Origin: Patescibacteria group bacterium | GTDB taxonomy: Bacteria; Patescibacteriota; Minisyncoccia; Minisyncoccales; UBA5738 | Length of the DNA: 64,000 nt | Direction of reading: 5' to 3' | Assembly (NCBI GenBank): GCA_034678605.1 | Contig: JAXDBQ010000039.1 | Coordinates: forward strand, 65,172 to 129,171 | Shown here: in pieces, positions 6,291-62,467 of the stretch | How positions within the stretch are numbered: position 1 is the first letter of the stretch | Layout: every line of letters starts with the position of its first letter | Notes under the pieces: model-generated | Told to the model about the DNA's origin: nothing | The model's database searches: none | What the model saw: only the letters and a program-made list of their open reading frames with translations | Position numbers and translations under genes: made by a program

Positions 6291-6413
6291 TGCATTTGTA
6301 TTTGTAGGGGCGAAACTATGTTTTCGCCCTGATTGCCGAAATGCGGGCGATTACCCACCTTCGTTAAAACTTCGGCGAGACAAGTATAGAATCGCCCCTA
6401 CAATCCAAAATGC
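6291..6413. repeat. GC-rich GTAG-flanked REP cluster (2 hairpins, second with a 31-nt loop insertion)
   Basis: The sequence is tgcatttgtatttGTAGGGGCGAAActatgtTTTCGCCC ... GGGCGATTAC[31 nt]atAGAATCGCCCCTACaa. Confidence 0.85.
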
Positions 6414-6783: not shown

Positions 6784-6947
6784 TTTTTTAGACACTTTAT
6801 TTTTTGGTGTCTTCTTTTATTTTTATTTGATAATTTCGGTAATCTTTAATAAGATAGAGTTATTAAACGCATGATTTGGGATGTGAGATTTAGTATTTAT
6901 TCATAAATCATAAATCTTAAATCATAAATCAAAGATTTGATAAGATT

Positions 6948-7574: not shown

Positions 7575-7587
7575 AAATCTTGTTTTT

Positions 7588-7708
7588 TGTAGGGGCGAAA
7601 CTATGTTTTCGCCCTTTTGGGTTTAAACGCGGGCAAATGATTATTTGCCCCTACAAATGCGAAATGCAATACGGGCGATTACATAGAATCGCCCCTACAA
7701 TGCGAAAT
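7588..7708. repeat. GC-rich GTAG REP composite (3 hairpins)
   Basis: It reads GTAGGGGCGAAActatgTTTTCGCCC, then GGGCAAATgatTATTTGCCCCTAC, then GGGCGATTacataGAATCGCCCCTAC. The same order and sequence recur at 45216-45330. Confidence 0.9.
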
Positions 7709-7783
7709 TAAAAAATCCGGCGGTTGCCGAATTTTTTTGTATTTTAATCTTAAATCTTATATCCTAAATCTTAAATCTTGGCA

Positions 7784-9125: not shown

Positions 9126-10133
9126 ATGGACAGGATTAAGCAAAAAAAATTCGGGAAGGTTAAACCTCCCAGAAAGTTAAATATTGTTTGCATTGGTGGA
9201 GGAACGCAGATTCCGCCGTTGCTTTTGGATAGTTTGAGAAAAATGCCGGTGGAAGTTGTCGGTATAACTTCGATGGTTGATTGCGGCGGGTCGGGCGGTT
9301 ATTTCAGGAACAAGTTTGAAGTTTTGCCGCCCAGCGATATCCGGCGCCATATCTTGGGCTTGTCCAATGCGCCGCAATGGAAAAAAGAATTGTGGAAATT
9401 CCGTTTCGGCGAAGAAGAGTTCGAGGATGGCCATAAAGGGCAGGTTTTTGCCAATGCGTTTATGGCCGGATTGGAAAACGCGTTCAAGGATTATCGAAAA
9501 GTGATGCAGTTTGCTTGTGAGTTCATGGAGTTGGGCAAAAATCGCGCGTTGCCGGCCACGATCAAGCAAACGCACATTATTGCCGAATTGGAAAACGGCG
9601 AAATTGTCAAAGGCGAGGCGGAAATCGATGTACCGCGCAATCACGACGCGAAACTGAAAATAAAAAAAGTTTATCTTGAACCGAAAGTCGCGGCATTTTC
9701 GGAAGCAAAAAAAGCGATCTTGGAGGCGGATGCGATCATTGTCGGCCCGGGGGATCTATATTCCAGCATCATTCCGTGTTTTTTGCCCGAAGGCATGGCG
9801 GCGGCGCTGAAAAAATCAAAAGCAAAAAAAATTTTAATTTGCAATTCTTTGGCTAAGATGGGCGAAACGCAGGATTTTTCCGTGGCCGATTTTGCGGCCG
9901 AGATCGAAAGATATATGCAAACAAAATTGGATTTTGTTTTGTACCATAATCAGCCGCTTGATAAGAATTTGCTGGCGGCGTTTCAAAAAGAATATCCGCA
10001 GATTTCCGGCGCATTGAAGATCGATGGCGATTTGCCGCCGGATAAGTTTGTGGGGCGCGATATTTATCAAAAAGATAAAATCGCCTTTGATTCCAAAAAA
10101 GTCATCAAAAACATCTTTAAACTGGTCAAATAA
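9126..10133 (+). CDS. YvcK/CofD-family protein (UPF0052, gluconeogenesis factor / 2-phospho-L-lactate transferase-like)
   Basis: It contains CIGGGTQIPPLL...VDCGGSGG...IVGPGDLYSSIIP motifs. The first ATG is at 9126; the ORF-track start at 9114 is TTG. Confidence 0.75.
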   Translation: MDRIKQKKFGKVKPPRKLNIVCIGGGTQIPPLLLDSLRKMPVEVVGITSMVDCGGSGGYFRNKFEVLPPSDIRRHILGLSNAPQWKKELWKFRFGEEEFEDGHKGQVFANAFMAGLENAFKDYRKVMQFACEFMELGKNRALPATIKQTHIIAELENGEIVKGEAEIDVPRNHDAKLKIKKVYLEPKVAAFSEAKKAILEADAIIVGPGDLYSSIIPCFLPEGMAAALKKSKAKKILICNSLAKMGETQDFSVADFAAEIERYMQTKLDFVLYHNQPLDKNLLAAFQKEYPQISGALKIDGDLPPDKFVGRDIYQKDKIAFDSKKVIKNIFKLVK

Positions 10134-10164
10134 AGTGTAGCAAGGTGAAACCTTGCTACACTTT
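10132..10164. repeat. REP hairpin, GTGTAGCAAGG family (inverted orientation, loop TGAAA)
   Basis: The sequence aaaGTGTAGCAAGGtgaaaCCTTGCTACACttt overlaps the yvcK-like stop codon. Confidence 0.9.
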
Positions 10165-10178
10165 GTTGGTTAAAATTT

Positions 10179-11456
10179 ATGGAAAAACAAAAATTGCAGG
10201 CGGTGATCTTGGCCGCGGGCGAGTCGTCGCGGTTCTGGCCGCTGAATTCAAACCACAAAAGCTTGCTGCGGATAATGGGTAAGCCGCTGATTTGGTACAC
10301 GATTGATGGATTAAGAAAAGCCGGCGTGGAAGAAATAATTATTGTGCAAGGGGTAAATCGCGATATCGAGGAAGAATTGAAAAATTTAAAAGATTGCGCA
10401 CCGGTCAAATATGTTATTCAATCCGAACCCAATGGCATGGCCGACGCGGTAATGTGCGCGAAAAACAAGATAAACGGCCAATTTTTTGTTTTAAACGCCA
10501 ATCGCATTGATTGCCAAGAAATTGTCGTTAAAATGCTGGAAAAAAGCCGGCAAACCGGCGCCAAAACGATTTTATTTGGCCAAGAGGCCAAAACCCCCTG
10601 GCTTTATGGGATTGCCAAGGTCGATGGCGATCGAGTTTTGGAATTGATCGAAAAGCCGGCCGAAGGCGTTGAGCCGTCAAATATAAAAATTCCGGTGGTG
10701 CGTTTGCTGGATAACAAAATTTTTGGATATATTGAAAAAGTTTTAGGCGGTGCCAATAAAAATGAAGAATTCGAAATGGCAATTTCGTTATATGCCAAAG
10801 AAAATGATACGCGGATAATAATTTTGGATAATAAATACGACGGTATATCGCTGAAATACCCTTGGCATTTGTTTGACGCGCAAAAATATCTTTTTGATAA
10901 ATATTTGGCCAAAAAACAGATTGCTAAGTCGGCGTGGGTGGCCAAAAACGCGGTGATTGAGGGCAATGTTTTTGTGGGTGAAAACTGCAAAATTTACGAA
11001 GGCGCGGTGATCAAGGGCCCGTGTTTTATCGGCGACAATTCCATAGTCGGCAACAATTCCGTGGTGCGCGATTATTGCGACATCGAAGCCGATGGGATGG
11101 TGGGCGCGTTGAGCGAAGTGACGCGGTCAATTTTCCAGCGAGACGCGCATATCCATTCCGGTTACATGGGCGATTCGATCGTTGACAGGGGAGTGCGTTG
11201 CGGCGCGGGCGTGATCACGGCCAATGTGCGGCTGGATCGGGAAAAAATATCGGCGCGGGTAAAAAAAGAAAAAGACGGCGTTAAGGTTTTGGCCAAAGTT
11301 GATACCGGCCTGAAGGCCCTGGGCGCGATCGTGGGCCAAAACTCGCGTCTTGGCGCGCGCGCTACCGTTTTGCCCGCTCGCTTTATTGGCAAAAACTGCC
11401 AAATCGCCGCCGGCGCGACAATCTCGCGCAACCTTGACGACGGCTCAAAAATTTGA
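10179..11456 (+). CDS. GlmU-like bifunctional sugar-1-phosphate nucleotidyltransferase / left-handed beta-helix acyltransferase
   Basis: The N-terminus (AVILAAGESSRFWPL) is an NTP-transferase fold. The C-terminal third is made of hexapeptide repeats (VIEGNVFVGENCKIYEGAVIKGPCFIGDNSIVGNNSVV). Confidence 0.7.
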   Translation: MEKQKLQAVILAAGESSRFWPLNSNHKSLLRIMGKPLIWYTIDGLRKAGVEEIIIVQGVNRDIEEELKNLKDCAPVKYVIQSEPNGMADAVMCAKNKINGQFFVLNANRIDCQEIVVKMLEKSRQTGAKTILFGQEAKTPWLYGIAKVDGDRVLELIEKPAEGVEPSNIKIPVVRLLDNKIFGYIEKVLGGANKNEEFEMAISLYAKENDTRIIILDNKYDGISLKYPWHLFDAQKYLFDKYLAKKQIAKSAWVAKNAVIEGNVFVGENCKIYEGAVIKGPCFIGDNSIVGNNSVVRDYCDIEADGMVGALSEVTRSIFQRDAHIHSGYMGDSIVDRGVRCGAGVITANVRLDREKISARVKKEKDGVKVLAKVDTGLKALGAIVGQNSRLGARATVLPARFIGKNCQIAAGATISRNLDDGSKI

Positions 11457-11525
11457 TCCGGCAGTAGATTTTTGGCTCGCTTTGCGATTGCGGTTTTGGA
11501 AAACCGGCCAAAATTCACTGCCGGT

Positions 11526-12987
11526 GTCATTTAATAATGATAATGTCATAGTGCGGTGATAATAGAAATGTCATACCTGGCGGTATGATGGGGTTAAATA
11601 ACTAACCCCATCAACCATGGAAAAAGAAATCATCGGTATGACACAAAAAGATTTATCAAGGTATCAAGTGATCAAAAATTTGATCGCCAAATTGATCAAC
11701 GGCACGGACGCGGCCAAGCAATTATCCCTGTCGGTAAGGCAAGTGAAGCGTTTGAAGGCAAGCGCGATAATTGACGGCGCCAAAGGTATCATCCACAAAT
11801 CGAGAGGCAGGGAAAGCAATCGCAAGACCGATGCGGCATTGTATCGAAAAGCCAAGGAATTGATTCAATCCCTTTACCCGGATTTCGGCCCCAAATTCGC
11901 TCATGAAAAGCTGATCGAAGTTCATCGTTTGGATATCGGCCAAGCCGCCACGCGAAACTTGATGATCGCCGAAAAAATCTGGATTCCGGAAAAGCGGAAG
12001 CAAAACAAGCAATACCGCTGTCAGAGGGAACGCAAAGCAAGCTTCGGCGAAATGGTCCAATTCGACGGTTGTTACCATTTCTGGTTCGAAAACCGCGGCC
12101 AAGAGTATTGCCTCTTGTCCGGCATCGACGATGCCACCGGCCGGCCGGTCAAATTGAAATTCGCCAAAAGCGAAGGTATCCAAGATGTCTTTGGCTACTG
12201 GAAAGAATACATCCAAAAATACGGCAAACCCGTCGCCATCTACCTGGACAAATTCAGCACTTACAAGATCAACCACAAGAACGCCAAGGACAACCATGAA
12301 TTACTCACCCAGTTCCAGAGAGCCTGCAAGGAATTAGGGATCACCCTGATCACCGCACACAGCCCGCAAGCCAAGGGCCGGGCGGAAAACCCATTCGGCA
12401 CTTTCCAGGACCGACTGGTAAAAGAATTGCGGTTGCAAAACATTTCCACCATTGAAGAGGCCAACAAGTTTTTGGATGAATTCTGGGCCGCCGACTACGC
12501 CCGGCGATTCGCCGTCAAACCCAAGAACCAAACCGATCTGCATCGAAAATTGACCGCCAAAGAATTGGCCAATCTGGACGCGATTTTCTCAGTCCAATCG
12601 ATTCGGCAGGTTAAGAACGATTTTACCGTCCAATTTAAAAACCATTGGTATCAATTAAGCAAAAATCAGCCGGCGACTATCCGGCGCCAAGAAAAGGTGC
12701 TCATCGAGGAACGGCTCGACGGATCGTTGGCGATCCGGCTGCGCGGCAAGTATTTGAATTTCAAACTCTTGCCGGCCAAACCGGAAAAAATCAAAGAGTC
12801 GCCGTTCGCGCTGCCTGCCAAAGGCACGGCATATGTTCCGGCCCCGGACCATCCTTGGCGGCGCGAGCTCAACGGTCTTTTCACAAAAAAATCCGGCGCG
12901 CCGGAAATCAGAACACTAACTTATTAAAAGTCAAGTATGACATTTTTAAAAAAATCCATGGTATGACATTTCTATTATCATTTGACA
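11526..12987 (+). mobile_element. insertion sequence (rve/DDE transposase; ISNCY- or IS481-like)
   Basis: The 25-bp imperfect terminal IRs are gtcatttaataatgataatgtcata and tatgacatttctattatcatttgac. The flanking 16-bp direct repeat is aaaattcactgccggt (11510-11525 and 12988-13003). Confidence 0.8.
11617..12927 (+). CDS. DDE transposase with N-terminal HTH and integrase-core (rve) domain
   Basis: 436 aa. The N-terminus QLSLSVRQVKRLKA is an HTH, and the central part resembles the rve fold (FDGCYHFWF...IYLDKFSTYK...TAHSPQAKGRAEN). Confidence 0.85.
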   Translation: MEKEIIGMTQKDLSRYQVIKNLIAKLINGTDAAKQLSLSVRQVKRLKASAIIDGAKGIIHKSRGRESNRKTDAALYRKAKELIQSLYPDFGPKFAHEKLIEVHRLDIGQAATRNLMIAEKIWIPEKRKQNKQYRCQRERKASFGEMVQFDGCYHFWFENRGQEYCLLSGIDDATGRPVKLKFAKSEGIQDVFGYWKEYIQKYGKPVAIYLDKFSTYKINHKNAKDNHELLTQFQRACKELGITLITAHSPQAKGRAENPFGTFQDRLVKELRLQNISTIEEANKFLDEFWAADYARRFAVKPKNQTDLHRKLTAKELANLDAIFSVQSIRQVKNDFTVQFKNHWYQLSKNQPATIRRQEKVLIEERLDGSLAIRLRGKYLNFKLLPAKPEKIKESPFALPAKGTAYVPAPDHPWRRELNGLFTKKSGAPEIRTLTY

Positions 12988-13105
12988 AAAATTCACTGCC
13001 GGTTGACTTTTGGGGCAAGGTGTGATATATAAAAATTGTTAAACAGAATAAACCACGGAGATAATCCGTGTGTTGTGTTTTGTTTTAATATGCGAGGTAT
13101 TGGCG

Positions 13106-13411
13106 ATGGAAAGTGGAATAATTGAAGTTGACGAAGGCAAAAGGTTCGAAATATTTGTATTAATGCTTTTTAACAATTCATTGAATGATGGGAACCCCAT
13201 TTCTGCTTATGGCGGGGCTTTTCTTTATTTTGTGAATAGGCCATTTGGAATGAATAAAGCTGGATATGCCAAATTGATAGCGATTAAATTGTGCGAAATA
13301 TTAAAAAAATCCAAAGAACAAGCAGTAGGAATTGCCAAAGTGGTTGAAAATATCATGCCGGATGATTTAAATGGAATAAATTCGGTGTTGGTTATTGTTG
13401 AAAAGTATTAA
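13106..13411 (+). CDS. hypothetical protein
   Basis: This is an ORF with no recognisable motif. The start is taken at MESGIIEV. Confidence 0.3.
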   Translation: MESGIIEVDEGKRFEIFVLMLFNNSLNDGNPISAYGGAFLYFVNRPFGMNKAGYAKLIAIKLCEILKKSKEQAVGIAKVVENIMPDDLNGINSVLVIVEKY

Positions 13412-13480
13412 GATTTGATGGCCTTGCGCGATGCGCTCGGCTCTTTTTTTATATGGCGGGCGTGATATGGTAGAATGGAA

Positions 13481-13512
13481 ATGCGGGCGAAAACATAGTT
13501 TCGCCTCTGCGG
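13481..13512. repeat. GC-rich REP, single hairpin
   Basis: The sequence atGCGGGCGAAAacataGTTTCGCCtCtGCgg is the reverse orientation of the GGGGCGAAACTATGTTTTCGCCC unit. Confidence 0.8.
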
Positions 13513-13527
13513 ATTAAATTCGAATTT

Positions 13528-14481
13528 ATGGTCAAAGTTCAAAGTTCAAAGTTCAAAGTTGGCTCGTTCGTCATCGGGGTGGACGGTGGCGGGACAAAGA
13601 CCGCGGCGGCATTGGCGGATATGGAGGGGAAAATTATCGCGCGGGTGGTGGCGGGCGGGTCAAGCGTGCGCAATTTTGGGATAAAGCTGGCGGCAAAGAA
13701 CGTGGCCCAAGCAGTTTATGGCGTTTTGAAAGGGAAGCGGAATATAAGGATCGTTTCCACTTTTATCGGTTTGCCGGCAATGGAAGAGGAATATAAAGAT
13801 AAAAAAACCGAAATTGTCAAAGAATTAAAAAAACACAAAAAGATCGCGGCGATCTTCAAAGGTAAAGTCGAGATCGGCTCGGACCAGCTGGTGGCGTTCC
13901 GTTCCGGCGCGCACGGCAAAGACGGCATTTTGGCGATTTGTGGCACGGGCACGGCGATCCATGGTTGGAACGGGGCGCGCGAAGTTTTCGTGAATAATCA
14001 GGGATGGGTGGGGAAGGGATCGGCAATATGGATCGGTACCCGCGCGATGGAGGCGGTCGCGGAGTCAATGGACGGTCGCGGCCAAAAAACAAAATTGGAG
14101 GAAATGATTTTTAAAAAATATAATTCTAAAAATATCAGCCAATTGTTAAAATTTATTTTTGAAGATTTGAAATCGGACCTACCCAAATTGGCGGTGTCGT
14201 GCGACGAGGCGGCCAATCGGGAGGATAAGGTGGCGCAGGAAATTTTGAAACAGGCGGGCAAGGAGATCGCGCTTGCGGTGCGCGTGGCCGCCGCAAAATT
14301 GCAGTTTGTCGAACAGGTGCCGCTGGTGCTGGCGGGCGGGGTGTACAAGTCGCGCTGGATGGCCGATGCCGCGGTGGCTGAGATCGAAAGGTATTATCCG
14401 GGAAAGTTTGATATTGTTTTTGTGGGCGATCCGGTGGCCGGGGCAGTGAAACTTGCCTTGGAAAATGCAAAAAAGATTTAA
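13528..14481 (+). CDS. BadF/BadG/BcrA/BcrD-type ATPase (N-acetylglucosamine kinase-like)
   Basis: It has VIGVDGGGTKTAAALADMEG at the N-terminus and ILAICGTGTAIHG as the second phosphate motif. Confidence 0.75.
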   Translation: MVKVQSSKFKVGSFVIGVDGGGTKTAAALADMEGKIIARVVAGGSSVRNFGIKLAAKNVAQAVYGVLKGKRNIRIVSTFIGLPAMEEEYKDKKTEIVKELKKHKKIAAIFKGKVEIGSDQLVAFRSGAHGKDGILAICGTGTAIHGWNGAREVFVNNQGWVGKGSAIWIGTRAMEAVAESMDGRGQKTKLEEMIFKKYNSKNISQLLKFIFEDLKSDLPKLAVSCDEAANREDKVAQEILKQAGKEIALAVRVAAAKLQFVEQVPLVLAGGVYKSRWMADAAVAEIERYYPGKFDIVFVGDPVAGAVKLALENAKKI

Positions 14482-14552
14482 GATTTAGGATTTAAGATTT
14501 AAGAATTTAAATTCGAATTTATTCATAAATCATAAATCTTAAATCATAAATC
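14475..14552. repeat. AT-rich GATTTA/TAAATC palindrome
   Basis: The arm gatttaagatttaggatttaagatttaagaattt is paired with attcataaatcataaatcttaaatcataaatc. Confidence 0.85.
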
Positions 14553-14593
14553 AAGGCAGTGGAAAAAGGTTGGAAGATATTAGTTTATTGATC

Positions 14594-15709
14594 ATGGGAA
14601 AGGAAATATATTTTTTGGCAATTGAGACATCGTGCGATGACACTTCGATCGCTGTTTTGCGAGCCAAAGAGGACGGCAAGGGAAAACTGAAAAAGATCGA
14701 AGCGTTATCCAATATAGTTTCCTCGCAGACGCAATTGCACGCGGGGTATGGCGGGGTTTATCCGTTTTTGGCCAAGCGCGAGCATCAAAAAAATTTGCCG
14801 CTGGTTTTTGAGCAGGCGGTTAAAAAAACTGATTTGTCAAAGCTGGAATTCATCGCCGTTACCAAGGGTCCGGGATTGGATCCTTGTTTGTGGACCGGCA
14901 TTAATTTCGCGCAAAACTTGGCAAAAAAATGCGATTTGCCGCTGGTGGGCGCCAATCATCTGGAAGCGCATTTTTTGGCCAATTTACTCGCCTTGGGTAT
15001 CGGCGAGGATGAATTTGCTAAAAAGTATTTGCCGGCGGCGTGCCTGGTGGTTTCGGGCGGCCACACGCTGTTGTTTTTGGCCAAGGCGATTGGCGATTAC
15101 CAATTGCTGGGGCAGACATTGGATGACGCGGCCGGCGAGTGCTTTGACAAAGCGGCGCGCATTCTTGGCCTTGGCTATCCGGGCGGCCCGGAAATCTCCA
15201 AGTATGCCAAACAATATATTAGCAAAGATTACAGGGGTTGGACCCCTGTAAAATTGACAGGGGTTGAACCCCTGTTGGTTAAGCTGCCGCGGCCGATGAT
15301 CAACCAAAAAAATTATAATTTCAGTTTTTCGGGGCTAAAGACTGCGATTTTGTATTTGCATCAAAAGCAAGATGAAGAAATTAAAAAATCACCGGAATAC
15401 CGGGCGGCGATGAGCCATGAGATCCAGCAGGCGATCATTGATGTGTTGGTTAAGAAAACTTGCCGCGCTGCAAAAGAATTTGCGGCGCGGTCGATCATTA
15501 TCGGCGGGGGCGTGAGCGCCAACCTTGCCTTGCGCGAGGCAATGAAAGCCGCCGCCAAAAACCTTGGCGTTAGATTTCTCGCGCCGTCAGCCGACTTGTC
15601 GGTGGATAACGCGGCCATGGCCGGAGTGGCCGGTTATTTTGCTTGGAAGCGAAGCGAAATTGCCGCCAACCCTGACGATCTGGTTTCCGAACCGAATTTG
15701 GGAATTTGA
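14594..15709 (+). CDS. tsaD: tRNA N6-adenosine threonylcarbamoyltransferase
   Basis: It shows LAIETSCDDTS, GANHLEAH, GGHT and FSFSGLKTA motifs. The first ATG is at 14594. The gene contains an in-frame 45-nt palindromic insert. Confidence 0.9.
   Translation: MGKEIYFLAIETSCDDTSIAVLRAKEDGKGKLKKIEALSNIVSSQTQLHAGYGGVYPFLAKREHQKNLPLVFEQAVKKTDLSKLEFIAVTKGPGLDPCLWTGINFAQNLAKKCDLPLVGANHLEAHFLANLLALGIGEDEFAKKYLPAACLVVSGGHTLLFLAKAIGDYQLLGQTLDDAAGECFDKAARILGLGYPGGPEISKYAKQYISKDYRGWTPVKLTGVEPLLVKLPRPMINQKNYNFSFSGLKTAILYLHQKQDEEIKKSPEYRAAMSHEIQQAIIDVLVKKTCRAAKEFAARSIIIGGGVSANLALREAMKAAAKNLGVRFLAPSADLSVDNAAMAGVAGYFAWKRSEIAANPDDLVSEPNLGI
15231..15275. repeat. double-hairpin palindromic element, in frame within tsaD
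   Basis: The sequence ACAGGGGTTgGACCCCTGT-aaaattg-ACAGGGGTTgAACCCCTGT is 45 nt (15 codons) and encodes RGWTPVKLTGVEPLL. Confidence 0.9.
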
Positions 15710-15728
15710 ATTTTCGAATTGTGGATTT

Positions 15729-15810
15729 TGCAGGGGCGATTCGGCGTAATCGCCCGCATTGAATCCGCATGCGGGCGAAAACATAGTTTCGCCCCTGCGG
15801 ATGCAAATAC
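15729..15810. repeat. GC-rich REP cluster (2 hairpins)
   Basis: It reads gCAGGGGCGATTcggcgTAATCGCCCgc ... GCGGGCGAAAacataGTTTCGCCCCTGcggatgcaaatac. Confidence 0.85.
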
Positions 15811-15842
15811 TTAAAAAGCGCATTACGCGCTTTTTGAATTTG

Positions 15843-15881
15843 TGCCGAAGGTGGGAGTTGAACCCACACAAGGTTGCCCTT
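15843..15881 (-). other. partial tRNA-Leu: duplicate of variable arm, T-arm and 3' acceptor strand only
   Basis: The minus-strand sequence aagggcaaccttgtGTGGGttcaactCCCACcttcggca aligns with the 3' third of the tRNA at 16502-16585. Confidence 0.8.
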
Positions 15882-16485
15882 AATTTTTTTCGGGTTTTAC
15901 GATTTTCAAAAATTCGGAAACATTTTTTGACAATTTGATGTTGTAGATAATTTTTTGGTTTGACGAATTCCTTTTGGCGCGATATATTTTTGGTTCAAAT
16001 CTCAACGAAACCATCATCTCGAAAACATCGTTTGCCAATTCGAGGATGATGGTGGAAAACATTACTGTTTTATAATTTCTGTCGAAATATATCGAGCCGT
16101 CGGTTTCGATCAATCCTTTAAGGCAATTTATCGCGTATTCTTTATCTTGCTTGATCCAACGCGGCACACTGGCGTTTTGGCGGAATTTCGAACCCTTACC
16201 GGATTTCCAGCCAAGCAGTTTTTCCAAATGGTTCGAATAAACGCTTATGTCCAGGCAATTTTCTTTGCGGTCGACGATGCTCACTTTGTTTTGCGGCAAA
16301 AGCAATTCAAGGGATTTGGCGATCCGTTCGGTTAGAAGAGGATATTTTTTATCGCAAGTGATCCGCAATCTTGTCGCGCGGCCGTTGGGATTGGATAAGT
16401 TCCCGTCGCCCAGCGCCAATCCGATGACATAGGATCGCAAAAGTTTATTTTCGTTAATAATTGTATTCCGAAAATAACCTTTCAT
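15880..16485 (-). CDS. LAGLIDADG homing endonuclease (double-motif, monomeric type)
   Basis: 201 aa with two LAGLIDADG motifs, VIGLALGDGNL and LKGLIETDGSI. It starts 16 nt after the tRNA-Leu 3' end with no obvious SD. Confidence 0.85.
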   Translation of the reverse strand: MKGYFRNTIINENKLLRSYVIGLALGDGNLSNPNGRATRLRITCDKKYPLLTERIAKSLELLLPQNKVSIVDRKENCLDISVYSNHLEKLLGWKSGKGSKFRQNASVPRWIKQDKEYAINCLKGLIETDGSIYFDRNYKTVMFSTIILELANDVFEMMVSLRFEPKIYRAKRNSSNQKIIYNIKLSKNVSEFLKIVKPEKN

Positions 16486-16501
16486 TTGGCGGTTTTAGGT
16501 G

Positions 16502-16585
16502 TGCCGAGAGAGGGAGTTGAACCCTCAAGAGGTTGCCCTCACAGCATTTTGAGTGCTGCATGTTTGCCAGTTTCATCACCTCGGC
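16502..16585 (-). tRNA. tRNA-Leu(CAA), type II with long variable arm; CCA not encoded
   Basis: Manual cloverleaf: acceptor GCCGAGG/TCTCGGC, 3-bp D stem ATG/CAT, anticodon stem CAGCA/TGCTG with loop CTCAAAA, variable hairpin GAGG-gcaa-CCTC, and T arm GAGGG-ttcaact-CCCTC. Confidence 0.85.
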
Positions 16586-16638
16586 AAAAAGTTTGCTGAT
16601 TATTTGTCCACCATTTAATCAGCGGAACCGGATTAATT

Positions 16639-21948: not shown

Positions 21949-21985
21949 ATTGCAATTATTATAGCACATTATCTTGGGGCGTTGA

Positions 21986-22061
21986 GATAAGATTTAAGAT
22001 TTATGATTTAAGATAAAATGCGGTTTTTTAATCATAAATCCTAAATCATAAATCTTAAATC
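21986..22061. repeat. AT-rich GATTTA/TAAATC palindrome
   Basis: The arm gataagatttaagatttatgatttaagat is paired with aatcataaatcctaaatcataaatcttaaatc. Confidence 0.85.
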
Positions 22062-22136
22062 GGCGTATCCTTGCGAAAGACCAAAATTTGTGGTAGAATC
22101 AAGCTGTTTTCATAATTAAAATACAACAAAATTATT

Positions 22137-25904: not shown

Positions 25905-26120
25905 ATGGCTCTCGAAATCAGGAAAAAACAACGGGAAAACGCCCAAGCGATGCTGCGGCGGTTTCAAAAAGCGGTTCAGCAAAGCGGAATTTTGCTGGAA
26001 AAGCGGCGCCGGCAGTTCGTCAAGCGGACAAAATCGGCCAATATGCAAAAACGGTCCGCCTTGCGCAAGGCCGAGACCCGGAAAAAATACGAGCTGATCA
26101 AGAAAATGAAGAAAGCTTAA
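25905..26120 (+). CDS. rpsU: 30S ribosomal protein S21
   Basis: 71 aa, basic, with LRRFQKAVQQSGIL...KRRRQF..KRTKSAN..KR. Confidence 0.9.
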   Translation: MALEIRKKQRENAQAMLRRFQKAVQQSGILLEKRRRQFVKRTKSANMQKRSALRKAETRKKYELIKKMKKA

Positions 26121-26191
26121 TTTATGAATAATGATTTAAGATTTATGAATAAATTCAAAATTCTTAAATCTTAAATCTTAAATCATAAATC
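26121..26191. repeat. AT-rich GATTTA/TAAATC palindrome
   Basis: The arm tttatgaataatgatttaagatttatgaat is paired with attcttaaatcttaaatcttaaatcataaatc. Confidence 0.8.
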
Positions 26192-26197
26192 AGGATT

Positions 26198-26677
26198 TTG
26201 ATGTTGAAGGATAAGATAAATGAGGATTTTAAAATCGCGTTCAAGGAAAAACGCGACCGCGAGGTTTCGGTTTTGAAAATGCTCAAGGCCGCGTTTTTGA
26301 ACAAGGAAAAAGAAAAGGAATACCAAACCAACAAGGCGGGCAAGGACGCGGCGCTGGCCGCGCTCACCGAAGAGGAAATGACCGGCGTGGTTGCCTCCGA
26401 AGTGAAAAAACTGCGGGATTCGTTGGCAATGTTTGAGCAAGGCGGCCGGGCCGACTTGGCCGAAGGCGCCAAAAAAGAGATCGAAATTTTGCTTCGCTAC
26501 CTGCCTGAGCAATTGACCGAGGATGAATTGAAAAAATTGGTGGCCGAAGCCGTGGCGCAATCCGGGGCGCAGACCGCCAAGGACATGGGCAAAGTGATGG
26601 CGGCGTTGATGCCCAAAGTGAAAGGCAAAGCCGACAGCAGCTTGGTGAGCCGGCTGGTGAAAGAAACATTGGGTTAA
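26198..26677 (+). CDS. yqeY: GatB/YqeY domain protein
   Basis: It has MLKDKINEDFKIAFKEK...LKMLKAAF at the N-terminus and GKVMAALMPKVKGKAD at the C-terminus. Confidence 0.85.
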   Translation: MMLKDKINEDFKIAFKEKRDREVSVLKMLKAAFLNKEKEKEYQTNKAGKDAALAALTEEEMTGVVASEVKKLRDSLAMFEQGGRADLAEGAKKEIEILLRYLPEQLTEDELKKLVAEAVAQSGAQTAKDMGKVMAALMPKVKGKADSSLVSRLVKETLG

Positions 26678-32701: not shown

Positions 32702-32840
32702 AAAAAATCCTAAATCCTAAATCCTAAAATCTAAACAAATCAAAAATCCAAAATTAAAAATTCAAAATAAATGCGTAAATTTTTTTCATTTTGGATTTTT
32801 AGTTTTGAATTTGTTTAGGATTTAGAATTTATAATTTGTG
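32702..32840. repeat. AT-rich palindrome built of AAATCC/GGATTT words
   Basis: The arm atcctaaatcctaaatcctaaaatctaaacaaatcaaaaatccaaaat is paired with attttggatttttagttttgaatttgtttaggatttagaatt. Confidence 0.8.
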
Positions 32841-32842
32841 AT

Positions 32843-32899
32843 TTGACGGATTTTGAGGGTGGGGTAGAATGGATATTGTCTTTCAAATTTAAACAATAT
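32843..32899 (+). promoter_or_regulatory. candidate nrdD promoter plus downstream inverted repeat
   Basis: TTGACG (32843-48), a 16-nt spacer and TAGAAT (32865-70) are followed by ATATTGT-13 nt-ACAATAT (32873-32899). Confidence 0.45.
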
Positions 32900-38082: not shown

Positions 38083-38784
38083 ATGCTCAATATCGCGGCT
38101 CACAAAGATATTTTGCTTCGAATTTTGCGGGATATTTATTCCGATGAAACGATCGGGCCGTTTTTGGGATTCAAGGGCGGAACTGCGGCTTATTTGTTCT
38201 ACGGTTTGGATCGCTTTTCGGTTGATTTGGACTTCGATCTGCTCGACAGCGGCAAAAAAGAATTTGTTTTTAACCGCATCCAAGAAATAATTAAAAAATA
38301 CGGCGATATTAAAGACGCGAGAATCAAAAGATTTAATTTGTTTTTTTTGCTTTCATGCCATAATCGGCAAAAAGGCGCGCAAAACGTCAAGATTGAAATA
38401 AACCATCGCGGTTTTATTTCTCGCTATGAAGTATTGTCGTTTATGGGAATTCCGATGCGAGTTATGGATAAGGAAGACATGTTTGCTTGCAAGTTGACGG
38501 CAATGTATGATCGTCTCGGAAGAACCAACCGGGATATTTACGATGTTTGGTTTTTTGGAAAAAGTATGTGGCCGATTAATAAAAAAATCGCGGAAAAGAA
38601 TTCAAAAATGGCTTATGGCGAATTATTGAATAAAATCCTTGAAAAACTTAAAAAATTCAACGGCAAAAAAATTTTGGATGGATTAGGGGAATTATTAAAC
38701 GAAAAACAAAAGGATTGGGTGCGCAAAAATTTGTTGAAAGAAGTCATTTTTCAAATTAAATTAATGGCGCAAGAACAATCATGA
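38083..38784 (+). CDS. abiEii: AbiEii/AbiGii-family nucleotidyltransferase toxin (DUF1814)
   Basis: It carries the motif FKGGTAAYLFYGLDRFSVDLDFD, and later RDIYD. Its stop overlaps the nrdG ATG (ATGA). Confidence 0.8.
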   Translation: MLNIAAHKDILLRILRDIYSDETIGPFLGFKGGTAAYLFYGLDRFSVDLDFDLLDSGKKEFVFNRIQEIIKKYGDIKDARIKRFNLFFLLSCHNRQKGAQNVKIEINHRGFISRYEVLSFMGIPMRVMDKEDMFACKLTAMYDRLGRTNRDIYDVWFFGKSMWPINKKIAEKNSKMAYGELLNKILEKLKKFNGKKILDGLGELLNEKQKDWVRKNLLKEVIFQIKLMAQEQS

Positions 38785-39494
38785 AAATTTCGGCGATACA
38801 AAAAACCACGTTGATCGATTATCCGGGGCGGGTGGCGGCCACGGTTTTTACCGTTGGCTGCAATTTTCGGTGTCCGTGGTGTTATTCCAAGGAATTGGTC
38901 TTGCCGGAATTGATCGCCAAACAGCCGGAAATTTCCGAAAATGAGGTTTTTGAATTTTTGCAAACCAAACAAGGATTGCTGGAAGGGGTGGTTGTCTGCG
39001 GGGGAGAGCCGACATTGCATTCGGATTTGCCGGAGTTTGCCAAAAAGATCAAGGACTTGGGATTTTTGGTTAAATTGGATACCAACGGTTCAAACCCGAA
39101 GATGTTAAAAGATCTGATCGATAAAAAACTGATCGATTATGTTGCCATGGACATCAAGCTTCCCAAAGAAAGATATTCCAAGCTTTTTGCCAATAATAAT
39201 ATAACCGCGGGGGATATTGAAGAGAGTATCAGGATTTTGAAAAATAGCGAAATTGATTTTGAATTCCGCACCACGGTCGCGCCCGGGGTTCACACGCCCG
39301 ACGACTTGGGCCAAATGGCCCGCTGGATCGGCCAAGAGATTCCCGGCCGCTTGCCCAAATATTTTTTGCAAAATTTCCGCTCCGGCCGCAACATTGATCC
39401 GGTTTTTGAAGCCAAAAAGCCGTTCGGCCCGGAATTTTTCGAACAAGCCCTGGGCAAGATCAAACCCTTTGTCCCAAATTGCCGCGTGCGATGA
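38781..39494 (+). CDS. nrdG: anaerobic ribonucleotide reductase activating protein (radical SAM)
   Basis: It has the CNFRCPWC (CX3CX2C) cluster, GVVVCGGEPTL and a size of 237 aa. Confidence 0.88.
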   Translation: MKISAIQKTTLIDYPGRVAATVFTVGCNFRCPWCYSKELVLPELIAKQPEISENEVFEFLQTKQGLLEGVVVCGGEPTLHSDLPEFAKKIKDLGFLVKLDTNGSNPKMLKDLIDKKLIDYVAMDIKLPKERYSKLFANNNITAGDIEESIRILKNSEIDFEFRTTVAPGVHTPDDLGQMARWIGQEIPGRLPKYFLQNFRSGRNIDPVFEAKKPFGPEFFEQALGKIKPFVPNCRVR

Positions 39495-45200: not shown

Positions 45201-45350
45201 TGTGTTTTGTATTCCGTAGGGGCGAAACTATGTTTTCGCCCTTTTGCGTTAAATACGGGCAAATGATTATTTGCCCCTACGATGCGAATGCGGATAAATC
45301 GGGCGATTACATAGAATCGCCCCTACAAATACAAATACAAATGCAAATGC
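45201..45350. repeat. GC-rich GTAG REP composite (3 hairpins), copy of 7588-7708
   Basis: The order cGTAGGGGCGAAActatgTTTTCGCCC, GGGCAAATgatTATTTGCCCCTAC, GGGCGATTacataGAATCGCCCCTACaaatacaaatacaaatgc matches the earlier copy. Confidence 0.9.
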
Positions 45351-45356
45351 GAGATT

Positions 45357-45401
45357 ATGGGGGTTCAACCTTTGTAAATTTGACAGGGGTTAAACCCCTG
45401 T
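45357..45401. repeat. intergenic copy of the tsaD double-hairpin element (first hairpin degenerate)
   Basis: The sequence is atGGGGGTTcAACCtttGT-aaatttg-ACAGGGGTTaAACCCCTGT. Confidence 0.8.
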
Positions 45402-45439
45402 TTTTTGGTGGAAAATTATTTTTTTGGTATGATGGACAA

Positions 45440-46834: not shown

Positions 46835-46860
46835 AATTTAAAAAGTACCTATTTTTTTGA

Positions 46861-46932
46861 TGATTTTGATTTAAGATTTAAGAATTAAGATTTAAGATTT
46901 GAGATTTATCATAAATCATAAATCTTAAATCA
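46861..46932. repeat. AT-rich GATTTA/TAAATC palindrome
   Basis: The arm tgattttgatttaagatttaagaattaagatttaagatttgagattt is paired with atcataaatcataaatcttaaatca. Confidence 0.8.
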
Positions 46933-46951
46933 TTATTCTTGTATTTTGACG

Positions 46952-47860
46952 ATGGTGTGGCTTTTGGTGGCCGTGGCCGGGTATGTGATGCTTGCCGGAG
47001 CGGCCCTGATCGATAAATTTTTACTGGCGGGGAAGCTTGACGATCCCAAATTATACGCGTTCTACATCGGCGCGCTGAGCTCGGCGGCGTTTTTGCTGTT
47101 GCCGTTCGGTTTTTGGAGCTATCCTGCCGCGGGAATTTTTTTGATCGGCATGGCCGCGGGCGCGGCGCAGATCTACGGGTCGTTTTTTTATCTTTCGGCG
47201 CTCAAGCGCTTTGAAGCCGCGCGGGTGGTGCCCATCGTGGGGGGTCTGAATCCGGTTTTCGGATTTTTTTTGACCGCCGCGGTTTCAGGCGGCAGCGCGA
47301 TCTTGGGACAAAAGGAGCTGGCCGGATTTTTTTTGCTGATCGCCGGCGGCTGGCTGATGATGGTGTCGGGATTTTCGTTCAAAGCCAAAGAATGGGGGTT
47401 TGCGATTATTGCCGCGCTTTTTTACGCGCTGTCGGTGGTGCTGGCCAAATTGGTTTATTTGCAGTTGCCGTTTGCCAACGGATTTTTGCTCACCGCTTTT
47501 GGTTCGGCGGCTGCGGCCATGACGTTTTTACTATCGAAGCCGGTGCGGCAAGCGGTTTTTGGCAAAAAGAAGGCGAGCGTCAAAAACCGCCCCAATTTTT
47601 TGTTTTTTTGCGGCCAGGCCATGGGCGGGGCGGCGTTTTTACTGCAAAGCGGCGCGGTTTATCTGGCGCCGCAGGCCAATGTGCCGGCGGTCAACGCCCT
47701 GGCCGGAGTGCAATATGTTTTCATTTTTGCAATTTCTTTGGTTTTGGCGCGGCGTTTCCCCAAGCAGTTTGCGGAAAAGACCACGCCCGCGCAATTCGCG
47801 CAAAAAATCTTTGCCATCATCTTGATCATGATCGGCCTGGCGATATTCGCCCTGAATTAA
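46952..47860 (+). CDS. EamA/DMT-family transporter
   Basis: About 300 aa with 10 hydrophobic helices in two similar halves. Confidence 0.7.
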   Translation: MVWLLVAVAGYVMLAGAALIDKFLLAGKLDDPKLYAFYIGALSSAAFLLLPFGFWSYPAAGIFLIGMAAGAAQIYGSFFYLSALKRFEAARVVPIVGGLNPVFGFFLTAAVSGGSAILGQKELAGFFLLIAGGWLMMVSGFSFKAKEWGFAIIAALFYALSVVLAKLVYLQLPFANGFLLTAFGSAAAAMTFLLSKPVRQAVFGKKKASVKNRPNFLFFCGQAMGGAAFLLQSGAVYLAPQANVPAVNALAGVQYVFIFAISLVLARRFPKQFAEKTTPAQFAQKIFAIILIMIGLAIFALN

Positions 47861-54398: not shown

Positions 54399-54522
54399 CA
54401 TTTCGTAGGGGCGGGCTTTATGCCCGCCCTTTGTGTTGCAACAAAAAGAATGCGGGCGGGCACAAGGCCCGCCCCTACGGAACGAATGCGAATGCAGGCG
54501 AAAACACAGTTTCACTCCTATG
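54399..54522. repeat. GC-rich GTAG REP cluster directly upstream of cassette C promoter
   Basis: It reads cGTAGGGGCGGGCtttatGCCCGCCC ... GCGGGCGGGCacaagGCCCGCCCCTACgg ... aggcgaaaacacagtttcac (degenerate). Confidence 0.85.
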
Positions 54523-55744: not shown

Positions 55745-55906
55745 TATTTGTATTTTTGCATTCGTAGGGGCGGGCCTTGTGCCCGCCCTTTTGCTGAAAT
55801 CGGGTATGGTGTTTGCATTTTGTATTTGTAGGGGCGATTCTATGTAATCGCCCTTTTGGGTTTGAATGCGGGCGAAAGCATAGTTTCGCCCCTACAATGC
55901 AAACGC
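55745..55906. repeat. GC-rich GTAG REP cluster (3 hairpins) directly downstream of cassette C
   Basis: It reads cGTAGGGGCGGGCcttgtGCCCGCCC ... GTAGGGGCGATTctatgTAATCGCCC ... GCGGGCGAAAgcataGTTTCGCCCCTACaatgc. Confidence 0.9.
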
Positions 55907-56007
55907 GGGTGGCTTAACGGACGTGAAGTTTCGATTCTCGTAGAAATAAGGCCATAAAATTGGCACCAAAATCGAAAGAAAAAATAATCAGGCAATAGGA
56001 TATTGAA

Positions 56008-61566: not shown

Positions 61567-61609
61567 ATATTCAAGTGTAGCAAGGTTTCACCTTGCTACA
61601 CTTGAATAT
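61567..61609. repeat. REP hairpin, GTGTAGCAAGG family, extended 19-bp perfect stem (left flank of RAYT)
   Basis: The sequence is ATATTCAAGTGTAGCAAGGtttcaCCTTGCTACACTTGAATAT. Confidence 0.95.
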
Positions 61610-61656: not shown

Positions 61657-62319
61657 ATGCCCAATTTAAAACGGGAATTTTTAAATGGCGGAATTTATCA
61701 TGCTTTTAATCGCGGCGTGGAAAAGCGCAATATTTTTATGAATGAATCCGATTATTATCGGTTTATTTTTTCTCTTTACGAATGCAACGATGCGGTTTCA
61801 GTGAGGGTGACGCAACGAATCATAAATCGACGTGCGCGAAACTTATCGCGAAGTGTAGCAAGGTTTCACCTTGCTACACTTGATCGCGTGGTTGATGATT
61901 CAAAATTGAAATCTTATAAGAGGGAATTATTGGTTGATATCCTGGGGTTTGTTTTAATGCCAAACCATTATCATTTGATTTTGCGTCAGTTGGCGGAGGG
62001 CGGGATATCATTGTTTATGAAAAAAATGAGCAACAGTTATACCGGTTATTTTAACGATCATTATAAAAGAAAGGGCGTGGGCGCTTTGTTCCAAGGAGCG
62101 TTTAAAGCGGTGCCGGTGGCTGGCGAGGGGCAATTGATGCATTTGGTCGAATATGTTTTTTCCAATCCGGTTGAAATTATCGATCCGGATTGGAAAAATC
62201 GGGGGACGGAAAATCCAAAAGAGGCGCTCAATTTTTTGAAAACCTATAAATGGTCAAGTTATTTGGACAGCGTTGGGATCGATAATTTTCCGTCAGTTAC
62301 TGCGCGTGAATTTTTGTAG
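61657..62319 (+). CDS. REP-associated tyrosine transposase (RAYT; IS200/IS605-like Y1 HUH transposase)
   Basis: It has the HUH motif MPNHYHLIL and the Tyr motif EYVFSNP, and is flanked by REP hairpins. It contains a REP copy in frame, and its TAG stop is followed by 37 more in-frame codons. Confidence 0.8.
   Translation: MPNLKREFLNGGIYHAFNRGVEKRNIFMNESDYYRFIFSLYECNDAVSVRVTQRIINRRARNLSRSVARFHLATLDRVVDDSKLKSYKRELLVDILGFVLMPNHYHLILRQLAEGGISLFMKKMSNSYTGYFNDHYKRKGVGALFQGAFKAVPVAGEGQLMHLVEYVFSNPVEIIDPDWKNRGTENPKEALNFLKTYKWSSYLDSVGIDNFPSVTAREFL
61851..61880. repeat. REP hairpin, GTGTAGCAAGG family, inside the RAYT coding sequence
   Basis: The sequence aaGTGTAGCAAGGtttcaCCTTGCTACACtt is translated as SVARFHLATL. 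Confidence 0.95.
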
Positions 62320-62434: not shown

Positions 62435-62467
62435 CAAGTGTAGCAAGGTTTCACCTTGCTACACTTG
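62435..62467. repeat. REP hairpin, GTGTAGCAAGG family (right flank of RAYT)
   Basis: The sequence is caaGTGTAGCAAGGtttcaCCTTGCTACACttg. Confidence 0.95.

Follow-up and report, generated by a model that had tools for sequence, protein, structure and literature searches.

The analyzed DNA, referred to below as the window, is a stretch of 64,000 nucleotides (positions 65,172 to 129,171, forward strand) from contig JAXDBQ010000039.1 of a Patescibacteria group bacterium (GCA_034678605.1). Its tsaD gene (14594..15709, + strand) carries, in frame at 15231-15275, two short palindromic hairpins, which are considered here as a doublet of repetitive extragenic palindromic (REP) sequences. The open reading frame (ORF) matched TIGR03723 with 331 bits (cut-off 296), which identified its product as TsaD; the mechanically called ORF begins with TTG at 14570 (14570-15709), while the alignment of homologues placed the start at MGKEIYF, which makes ATG 14594 the likely initiation codon. 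Hairpin 1 (15231..15249, +; ACAGGGGTTGGACCCCTGT) is perfect over 19 nt, its stem reaches 10 bp across 15229-15251, and it encodes (Y)RGWTPV. Hairpin 2 (15257..15275, +; ACAGGGGTTGAACCCCTGT), likewise perfect over 19 nt, encodes TGVEPL, and the two are separated by a 7-nt linker, AAAATTG (15250..15256, +), which differs among relatives. Each REP has a perfect stem of 8-10 bp and a 3-nt loop, and hairpin 2 departs from the exact inverse of hairpin 1 at two loop bases. In the tsaD frame, the 45 nt form 15 codons without a stop, as had been described in an earlier note on this DNA, and give the peptide YRGWTPVKLTGVEPL. The frame is open, since hairpin 1 shows TCA, TCG, TGG or CCA, and the opposite loop orientation would give TGA. 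Folded as single-stranded DNA, the 49-nt doublet reaches -18 kcal/mol (z = -5.7).

The insert is placed between the GGPEISKYA and LPRPM blocks of TsaD, a location also given in the earlier note and supported by the solved TsaD proteins of T. maritima and A. aeolicus, whose alignment opened a gap of 14-16 residues precisely there, from GGPxI...A to (L/F)PRPM. Compared with the closest insert-free relative (L007, 76% identity), the loop of the window TsaD is only 10 residues longer; a net gain of about 10, not 15, residues means that the native loop was partly replaced. The AlphaFold2 model of TsaD (66 sequences) had a mean predicted local distance difference test (pLDDT) score of 92.9, and the sole segment below 50, model residues 212-223 (DYRGWTPVKLTG), predicted as coil, belongs to the insert; the fold is otherwise canonical (TMt of 0.90-0.93 to solved YgjD/TsaD). 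In T. maritima TsaD, the insert site falls at G188/D189, within the link between helices alpha6 and alpha7. The FSFSGLK motif and helix alpha7 follow about 18 residues further toward the C-terminus and touch the D-stem of the tRNA in the TsaB2D-tRNA complex of this species (PMC13276492); among the contacts mentioned in that paper there is no residue of the insert loop. As modeled, the insert is accommodated in a floppy, presumably surface-exposed loop compatible with the fold.

The 64 kb of the window were scanned on both strands for the hairpin pattern with up to three mismatches, and seven strand-matches were found, compared with 0.06 expected by chance (0 of 100 shuffles reached seven), so that the palindrome does occur elsewhere beyond chance. 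It had been claimed that an identical unit with the same linker lies in the non-coding DNA at 45357-45401, and this turned out to be true only of its second hairpin (45383..45401, +; ACAGGGGTTAAACCCCTGT), which is intact, is followed by a T-run and received a terminator-like call at 45382-45402. The first half of this degenerate intergenic doublet (45357..45375, +; ATGGGGGTTCAACCTTTGT) is a decayed REP with four mismatches and no stable fold (z = -1.5), and the linker is AAATTTG as opposed to AAAATTG in tsaD. The intact copy is the last member of a multi-family hairpin cluster spanning 45213-45401. At least three more families of hairpin repeats (GTAGGGGCGAAACTATGTTTTCGCCC, GGGCAAATGATTATTTGCCC and GGGCGGGC-N5-GCCCGCCC), common to the relatives L002, L003 and L006, were observed in the window, clustered in intergenic DNA in the manner of bacterial interspersed mosaic elements (BIMEs), at 6304-6348, 7586-7713, 13473-13525, 15727-15813, 45213-45341, 54409-54519 and 55768-55910.

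Evidence of mobility comes from another gene of the window, encoding an NrdG-like radical-SAM activase (38781..39494, +), which represents an empty allele for the REP doublet. Its orthologues in L118 and L121 contain exactly 45 extra nucleotides, the doublet, at the site between 39200 and 39201, and this difference appears as a single clean gap in the nucleotide alignment; the doublet is in frame in both (DRGSTPVNLTGVEPLS in L121, a member of Saccharibacteria, and DRGWTPADLTGVGPLS in L118). The doublet is therefore a discrete 45-nt indel in a gene other than tsaD. No target-site duplication, which would be characteristic of a miniature inverted-repeat transposable element, was discernible at this filled/empty junction. 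For Y1-type elements, the lack of such a duplication is expected. Further in-frame copies were found in other Patescibacteria, in genes for a MiaB-like methylthiotransferase, a Zwf-Gnd fusion, a UvrD-like helicase and the thymidylate kinase Tmk. It was also observed that the radical-SAM genes of L121 (3688-4515) and L118 (7573-7998) share long identical peptide stretches besides the doublet at the same site, which suggests that either the gene was recently transferred horizontally and took its insert along, or the binning or labelling is at fault.

The hairpin census, in which one genome per species (596 Gb) was scanned for ACAGGGGTNNNACCCCTGT, gave at least 119 loci, many of them single matches in unrelated phyla; as 140-280 matches are expected in 596 Gb by our own estimate, these single matches may be due to chance. 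Several Patescibacterial genomes among the matches listed contain multiple copies of the hairpin, mainly in AT-rich intergenic DNA. The loci selected by this DNA pattern alone were then compared, using tblastn, with the product of the window gene for a REP-associated Y1/HUH transposase (RAYT; 61657..62319, +, Pfam Y1_Tnp 28.9 bits), and it was revealed that RAYT homologues adjoin the hairpin. Three of them, in L032 (Nealsonbacteria, 50% identity to the window RAYT), L025 (Sungbacteria) and L041 (Minisyncoccia), have ACAGGGGT-NNN-ACCCCTGT on either side, which was verified by sequence inspection together with the Pfam Y1_Tnp domain. The L032 RAYT is flanked by an ACAGGGG REP. What defines a REP-RAYT system is this arrangement, with the cognate hairpin on either side of the RAYT gene. 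The REP family of the tsaD doublet is thus dispersed in Patescibacterial genomes and flanks RAYT genes, and, judging from the sequence, the doublet is a REPIN-like unit (REPIN, REP doublet forming a hairpin) of a RAYT-associated Patescibacterial REP family.

The RAYT genes themselves contain REPs. Three REPs belong to the family of the window RAYT (61575-61601, 61853-61879 and 62438-62464), two of them flanking and one inside the ORF; the internal copy, already reported in the earlier note, is real (61851-61881 within 61657-62319). Four of five Patescibacterial RAYT genes (loci: window 61657-62319, L032 3252-4040, L025 6565-7325 and L110 5023-5851) have their own cognate REP in frame inside the ORF as well as flanking the gene, at a fixed position, approximately residues 64-75, N-terminal of the HUH motif. 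The internal REP co-varies with the flanking family (GTAGCAAGG..., ACAGGGG... and GTAGCGGGAAC...), and in L032 and L025 its loop has the opposite orientation to that of the flanking REPs. This suggests that the internal REP is a built-in feature of the REP-RAYT system, and it might possibly serve in autoregulation.

In comparison with known systems, REP/REPIN-RAYT elements are the closest. They share with the elements described here the short palindromic hairpin, the two inverted copies a few bases apart, the ability of the doublet to fold as one long hairpin, and RAYT genes flanked by the cognate hairpin (here in L032, L025 and L041). The Patescibacterial copies likewise appear to be mostly intergenic, often near the 3' ends of genes and terminator-like, and occasional in-frame dimers lengthen housekeeping proteins by 15-30 residues. 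REP/REPIN elements are mobilized by RAYT, and REP dimers inside genes are among them (Di Nocera et al. 2013, PMC3733652; Bertels & Rainey 2011, PMC3116915); in-frame REP dimers coding for 20-30 residues are known in other phyla, and GTAG- or CGTC-tagged REPs in coding regions were described in Opitutus, Thauera, Thioalkalivibrio and Rickettsia (PMC3733652). The Patescibacterial elements differ in their host, in the 5' tag (ACAG, not GTAG/CGTC), in the very short REP (19 nt with a 3-nt loop), in the REP at a fixed position inside the RAYT ORF, and in the recurrent use of one protein loop across the phylum.

The earlier note had compared the insert with the Rickettsia palindromic elements (RPE), and its notion of a small palindromic mobile element in frame agrees with the lineage-specific loop content, the RAYT flanking, the 45-nt indel and the flexible loop, with the closest family being, more precisely, REP/REPIN-RAYT. 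RPE are also palindromic selfish DNA lying in frame in essential genes, at places that the fold tolerates, and are presumably translated; they are set apart by size and host, as RPE-1 is about 100-150 bp long with a conserved peptide of 30-50 residues, compared with 45 nt here, and occurs in another phylum. No transposase is known to be linked to RPE-1 (Ogata et al. 2000, summarised in PMC10969869 and PMC3733652). Enterobacterial BIMEs and nested REPs are similar in that several hairpin families meet at one locus (window 45213-45401; the tsaD loops of L002 and L006), whereas here one such cluster is inside coding sequence and in frame. A search of the accessible literature found no report of REPs or in-frame palindromes in Patescibacteria.

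The best protein matches to the window TsaD include Patescibacterial TsaDs with 50-94% identity. Of the genomes compared, L001 (GCA_964551425.1) is approximately 100% identical to much of the window, while L112 (Patescibacteria UBA6102) and L057/L118 (DAOSDI01) show about 75% nucleotide identity; DAOSDI01 is labelled 'Pacearchaeota archaeon' but is Paceibacteria-like, with a bacterial-type TsaD and synteny with the window. An alignment of 120 homologues, supplemented by the DNA of seven relatives, showed that the GGPEI.K.A-to-LPRPM segment is highly variable among proteins that are 70-94% identical elsewhere. The tsaD loops of L005, L112 and L057 read ACAGGGGTTCAACCCCTGT-N7-ACAGGGGTTGAACCCCTG, with hairpin 2 being the exact reverse complement of hairpin 1, so that the doublet can fold as a single 18-bp hairpin (the L005 allele reaches -22.5 kcal/mol as DNA, z = -9.0). 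A decayed copy of the doublet is present in L001, three hairpins in L006, and an unrelated hairpin pair, AAAAGGGTCGGACCCTTTT and its inverse, in L003 and L130. The L002 loop contains a different hairpin pair followed by GAACCCCTGTTG, a remnant of the window-type element, which has the appearance of a nested or successive insertion. For the loop hairpins of L002, L003 and L005, no further copies were found in their own 10-kb flanks, which makes them no more than putative members of repeat families. In a tree built with the loop masked, loop states are intermixed and short loops occur in basal members; such intermixing among relatives of 70-94% identity indicates that the loop content turns over much faster than the protein. 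The loop is, then, lineage-specific, and L007, whose short loop is without such a hairpin, does not carry an equivalent 15-residue one.

The comparison with L001 also points to recombination. Identity is 100% over 9256-14455 and approximately 15290-15655, and drops to 83-93% over 14456-15280, a divergent block spanning the 5' two-thirds of tsaD. The left edge of this block bears inverted heptamer arrays, (AAGATTT)n ... (AAATCWT)n, immediately upstream of tsaD (14468..14563, no strand assigned), and its right edge is the REP doublet. As the divergence stops at the doublet, the latter coincides with a recombination junction. A second block divergent from L001, with repeats at the recombination junctions, covers 15656-16590, the region of a free-standing LAGLIDADG endonuclease gene with tRNA-Leu(CAA) on one side and, on the other, a partial copy of roughly the last 42 nt of this tRNA (features at 15838-15880, unsigned, and at 15880-16485 and 16501-16585, both on the - strand). 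The partial copy shows compensatory changes in the T-stem, LAGLIDADG homologues follow tsaD in L001 and L004 as well, and the arrangement is a signature of an element integrated at the 3' end of a tRNA gene.

A survey of the loop covered 88 tsaD genes from Patescibacteria, most of which share about 50% identity with that of the window, and showed the loop to be a hot spot. A perfect hairpin of at least 8 bp was present in the loop of 23 genes (26%) and a strong 7-nt-periodic array in 26 (30%), compared with about 3% for each in same-length windows elsewhere in tsaD. Per kb, hairpins numbered 5.6 in the loop, compared with 0.87 for the remainder of tsaD, 0.40 within other ORFs and 1.97 in DNA outside any ORF. 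Perfect GC-rich hairpins were found in 28 of the 88 tsaD genes and in 31 of 302 other long ORFs (P = 5e-6), and stems of at least 10 bp in 16/88 and 6/302, respectively (P = 3e-7). The loop arrays consist of five tandem heptamers in frame, e.g., (AAATTAC)5, which gives KLQITNYKLQIT, with a unit varying by lineage; they occupy the hairpin slot, flush with the same boundary, and array loops and hairpin loops are interspersed on the tree.

Similar in-frame arrays of about five heptamers (35-36 nt) were noticed in loops of essential Patescibacterial proteins, among them TsaD (three different loops), ValRS, a P-type ATPase, a RecG-like helicase and, with the same loop affected in two lineages, the GyrA C-terminal domain. 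Their units, as in (AAATTAC)5, (AAACTAC)5, (AACCTAA)5 and (AAGTTCA)4-5, are uniform inside an array and variable between lineages. Arrays in tsaD loops are those of L174/L194, L176, L145, L150, L202, L190 and L147, and others lie in L137 (13460-13496, 16699-16735), L147 (4003-4036), L153 (6291-6327, 12903-12938, 17213-17241) and L160 (661-694). In the window, (AAGTTCA)x4 at 13528-13562 forms the opening codons of an ORF for a BadF/BcrA-type ATPase (MVKVQSSKFKV). Intergenic inverted heptamer arrays of the (AAGATTT)n ... (AAATCWT)n type, in which long AT-rich hairpins are possible, are found at gene ends (492-576, 6860-6942, 14468-14563, 21985-22065, 26120-26202, 32705-32843 and 46855-46952) and may be the terminators of this genome.

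Based on these data, the tsaD element is probably a REPIN-like, non-autonomous REP doublet residing in frame in a disordered loop of TsaD, most likely as a tolerated passenger. By analogy with REP/RAYT and IS200/IS605 elements, a RAYT acting on single-stranded DNA would have put the copy into tsaD, where it could survive owing to a length that is a multiple of three, a stop-free frame and the tolerance of the alpha6-alpha7 connection. The insert would then be translated as about 15 mostly disordered residues, neutral or nearly so for TsaD. Once in the loop, the hairpin may attract, or be replaced by, further repeats and serve as a recombination junction, which we propose as the reason for the rapid turnover among relatives.

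Several observations fit a tolerated RAYT-borne passenger less well. There are only two loci of the tsaD-type REP within the 64 kb, and the sole RAYT gene of the window lies between REPs of another family, with a GTAG tag, so the cognate RAYT of the tsaD REP may be absent from this genome. The ACAG 5' tag of the tsaD REP is not a canonical one, and the tags of related tsaD-loop hairpins vary (GTAG in L134, ATAG in L191 and L141, and ACAG). In tsaD itself, no clean empty site was found among the relatives and the boundaries of the insertion are blurred, because L007, the nearest relative without the hairpin, has another loop of 10 residues. Translation of the insert into some 15 residues is presumed from the reading frame. 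Moreover, lineages that are 35-49% different at the third codon positions of the flanking tsaD sequence show no more than 1-4 differences over the 32 positions of the REP stems (in their hairpin loops and linker, 3-8 of 13 positions differ), and stronger decay would be expected of a purely neutral passenger. A lone 19-nt hairpin whose end lies exactly 4 nt ahead of the Leu codon in LPRPM, in one frame, was seen in 10-11 distant lineages; such fixed-offset hairpins, with differing stems that read x-R-G-x-x-S-V/I, are present in the tsaD loops of L186, L191, L155, L152, L157, L149, L156, L141, L158/L198 and L196. Their frame-anchored alignment revealed compensatory double changes in 8/8 stem pairs, with 92% of the cells paired (0/500 shuffles matched this; 27-47% were paired when the 3' partners were slid by 1-3 columns), although these rows were picked for having a hairpin, which leaves the fixed position as the informative part. 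The fixed offset and the compensatory changes hint at targeting of, or selection on, the hairpin.

Three explanations of the conserved, fixed-offset hairpins are possible: targeted insertion, homogenization by the REP population of the genome, and a protein-level filter, as the 3' end of the hairpin (TCT GTx) gives Ser-Val/Ile at a beta-strand position. Taken further, the alpha6-alpha7 loop of TsaD could be a phylum-wide, position-specific landing slot for Patescibacterial repeat DNA, a proposal that we regard as conceivable but on the whole doubtful. If it were true, it would mean either mobilization targeted to a conserved tsaD sequence or structure, or selection on the hairpin at the DNA or RNA level, for which RAYT-linked maintenance, a recombination junction or a translational pause would be candidates.

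The same observations are the strength of the rival that survives best, although it is quite unlikely, namely that a functional nucleic-acid structure, the hairpin, has been conserved here in the tsaD gene or its mRNA (a translational pause or processing site just before the codons for LPRPM, or DNA to which a protein binds), its likeness to REPs being secondary. The conservation of the stems far past the neighboring synonymous sites, the fixed 4-nt offset in one frame in distant lineages and the compensatory changes in all stem pairs would be expected of it, with the reservation on row selection given above. The structure survey bears on it from two sides: in 27% of the 88 loci, no other stretch of the gene is as structured as the loop, and that the loop is unusually structured in only this share argues against a universally required hairpin, as about 70% of Patescibacterial tsaD loops are without stable structure, including the 30% with unstructured heptamer arrays. 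Further points against a functional structure are the hairpin-free loop of the close relative L007, the interspersion of hairpin and array loops on the tree, and the occurrence of the tsaD-type hairpin dispersed in genomes, flanking RAYT genes and inserted in other genes. No Rfam family covers the tsaD element, and no intrinsic terminator was called inside tsaD at 15231-15275, where the sense strand is without a T-run. Mimicry of a tRNA anticodon arm, as a means of autoregulation, was considered separately and rejected, since the 7-nt loop GUUGAAC/GUUCAAC has A and not U at position 36.

It is very improbable that the insert is an adaptive, lineage-specific peptide providing, e.g., an extra contact with tRNA or TsaB/TsaE, for which the palindrome was just the raw material. 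The proximity of the insert site to the tRNA-contacting FSFSGLK/alpha7 region (PMC13276492) and the good conservation of YRGSTPVKLTGVEPL within one subclade would suit such a role. Nevertheless, the insert is modeled with pLDDT below 50 and without secondary structure, close relatives have unrelated peptides or none, the loop peptides are a mere translation of the resident repeat, and conservation tracks the DNA stem and not the codon positions. Finally, an origin of the palindromes in place, by template switching or quasi-palindrome correction during replication and with no mobile insertion, which could draw on the natural GC-rich palindromes flanking the loop (CCGGGCGGCCCGG, coding for PGGP, and GCCGCGGC in LPRPM), on a 9-bp inverted repeat within the L007 loop and on the lack of a clean tsaD empty site, is hardly credible given that the very same 19-mers are found between genes, within other genes and beside RAYT genes of several classes, and that the doublet is a clean 45-nt indel elsewhere.

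As in-frame REPs have been described in other bacteria, the kind of event reported here is already known; what is new is its occurrence in this phylum, the way in which one loop of TsaD is used time and again, and stems that are preserved unusually well. REP/REPIN-RAYT systems are present in the ultra-small, reduced genomes of Patescibacteria, and they enter essential genes without breaking them. Consequently, some lineage-specific protein inserts are probably translated selfish DNA and not adaptation, and both genome annotation and protein-family alignments should allow for translated REP inserts. A REP in an essential gene is also a natural experiment, in which a comparison of the stems with neighboring synonymous sites gauges the selection or homogenization acting on REP structure, a matter that bears on whether and how REPs are maintained.

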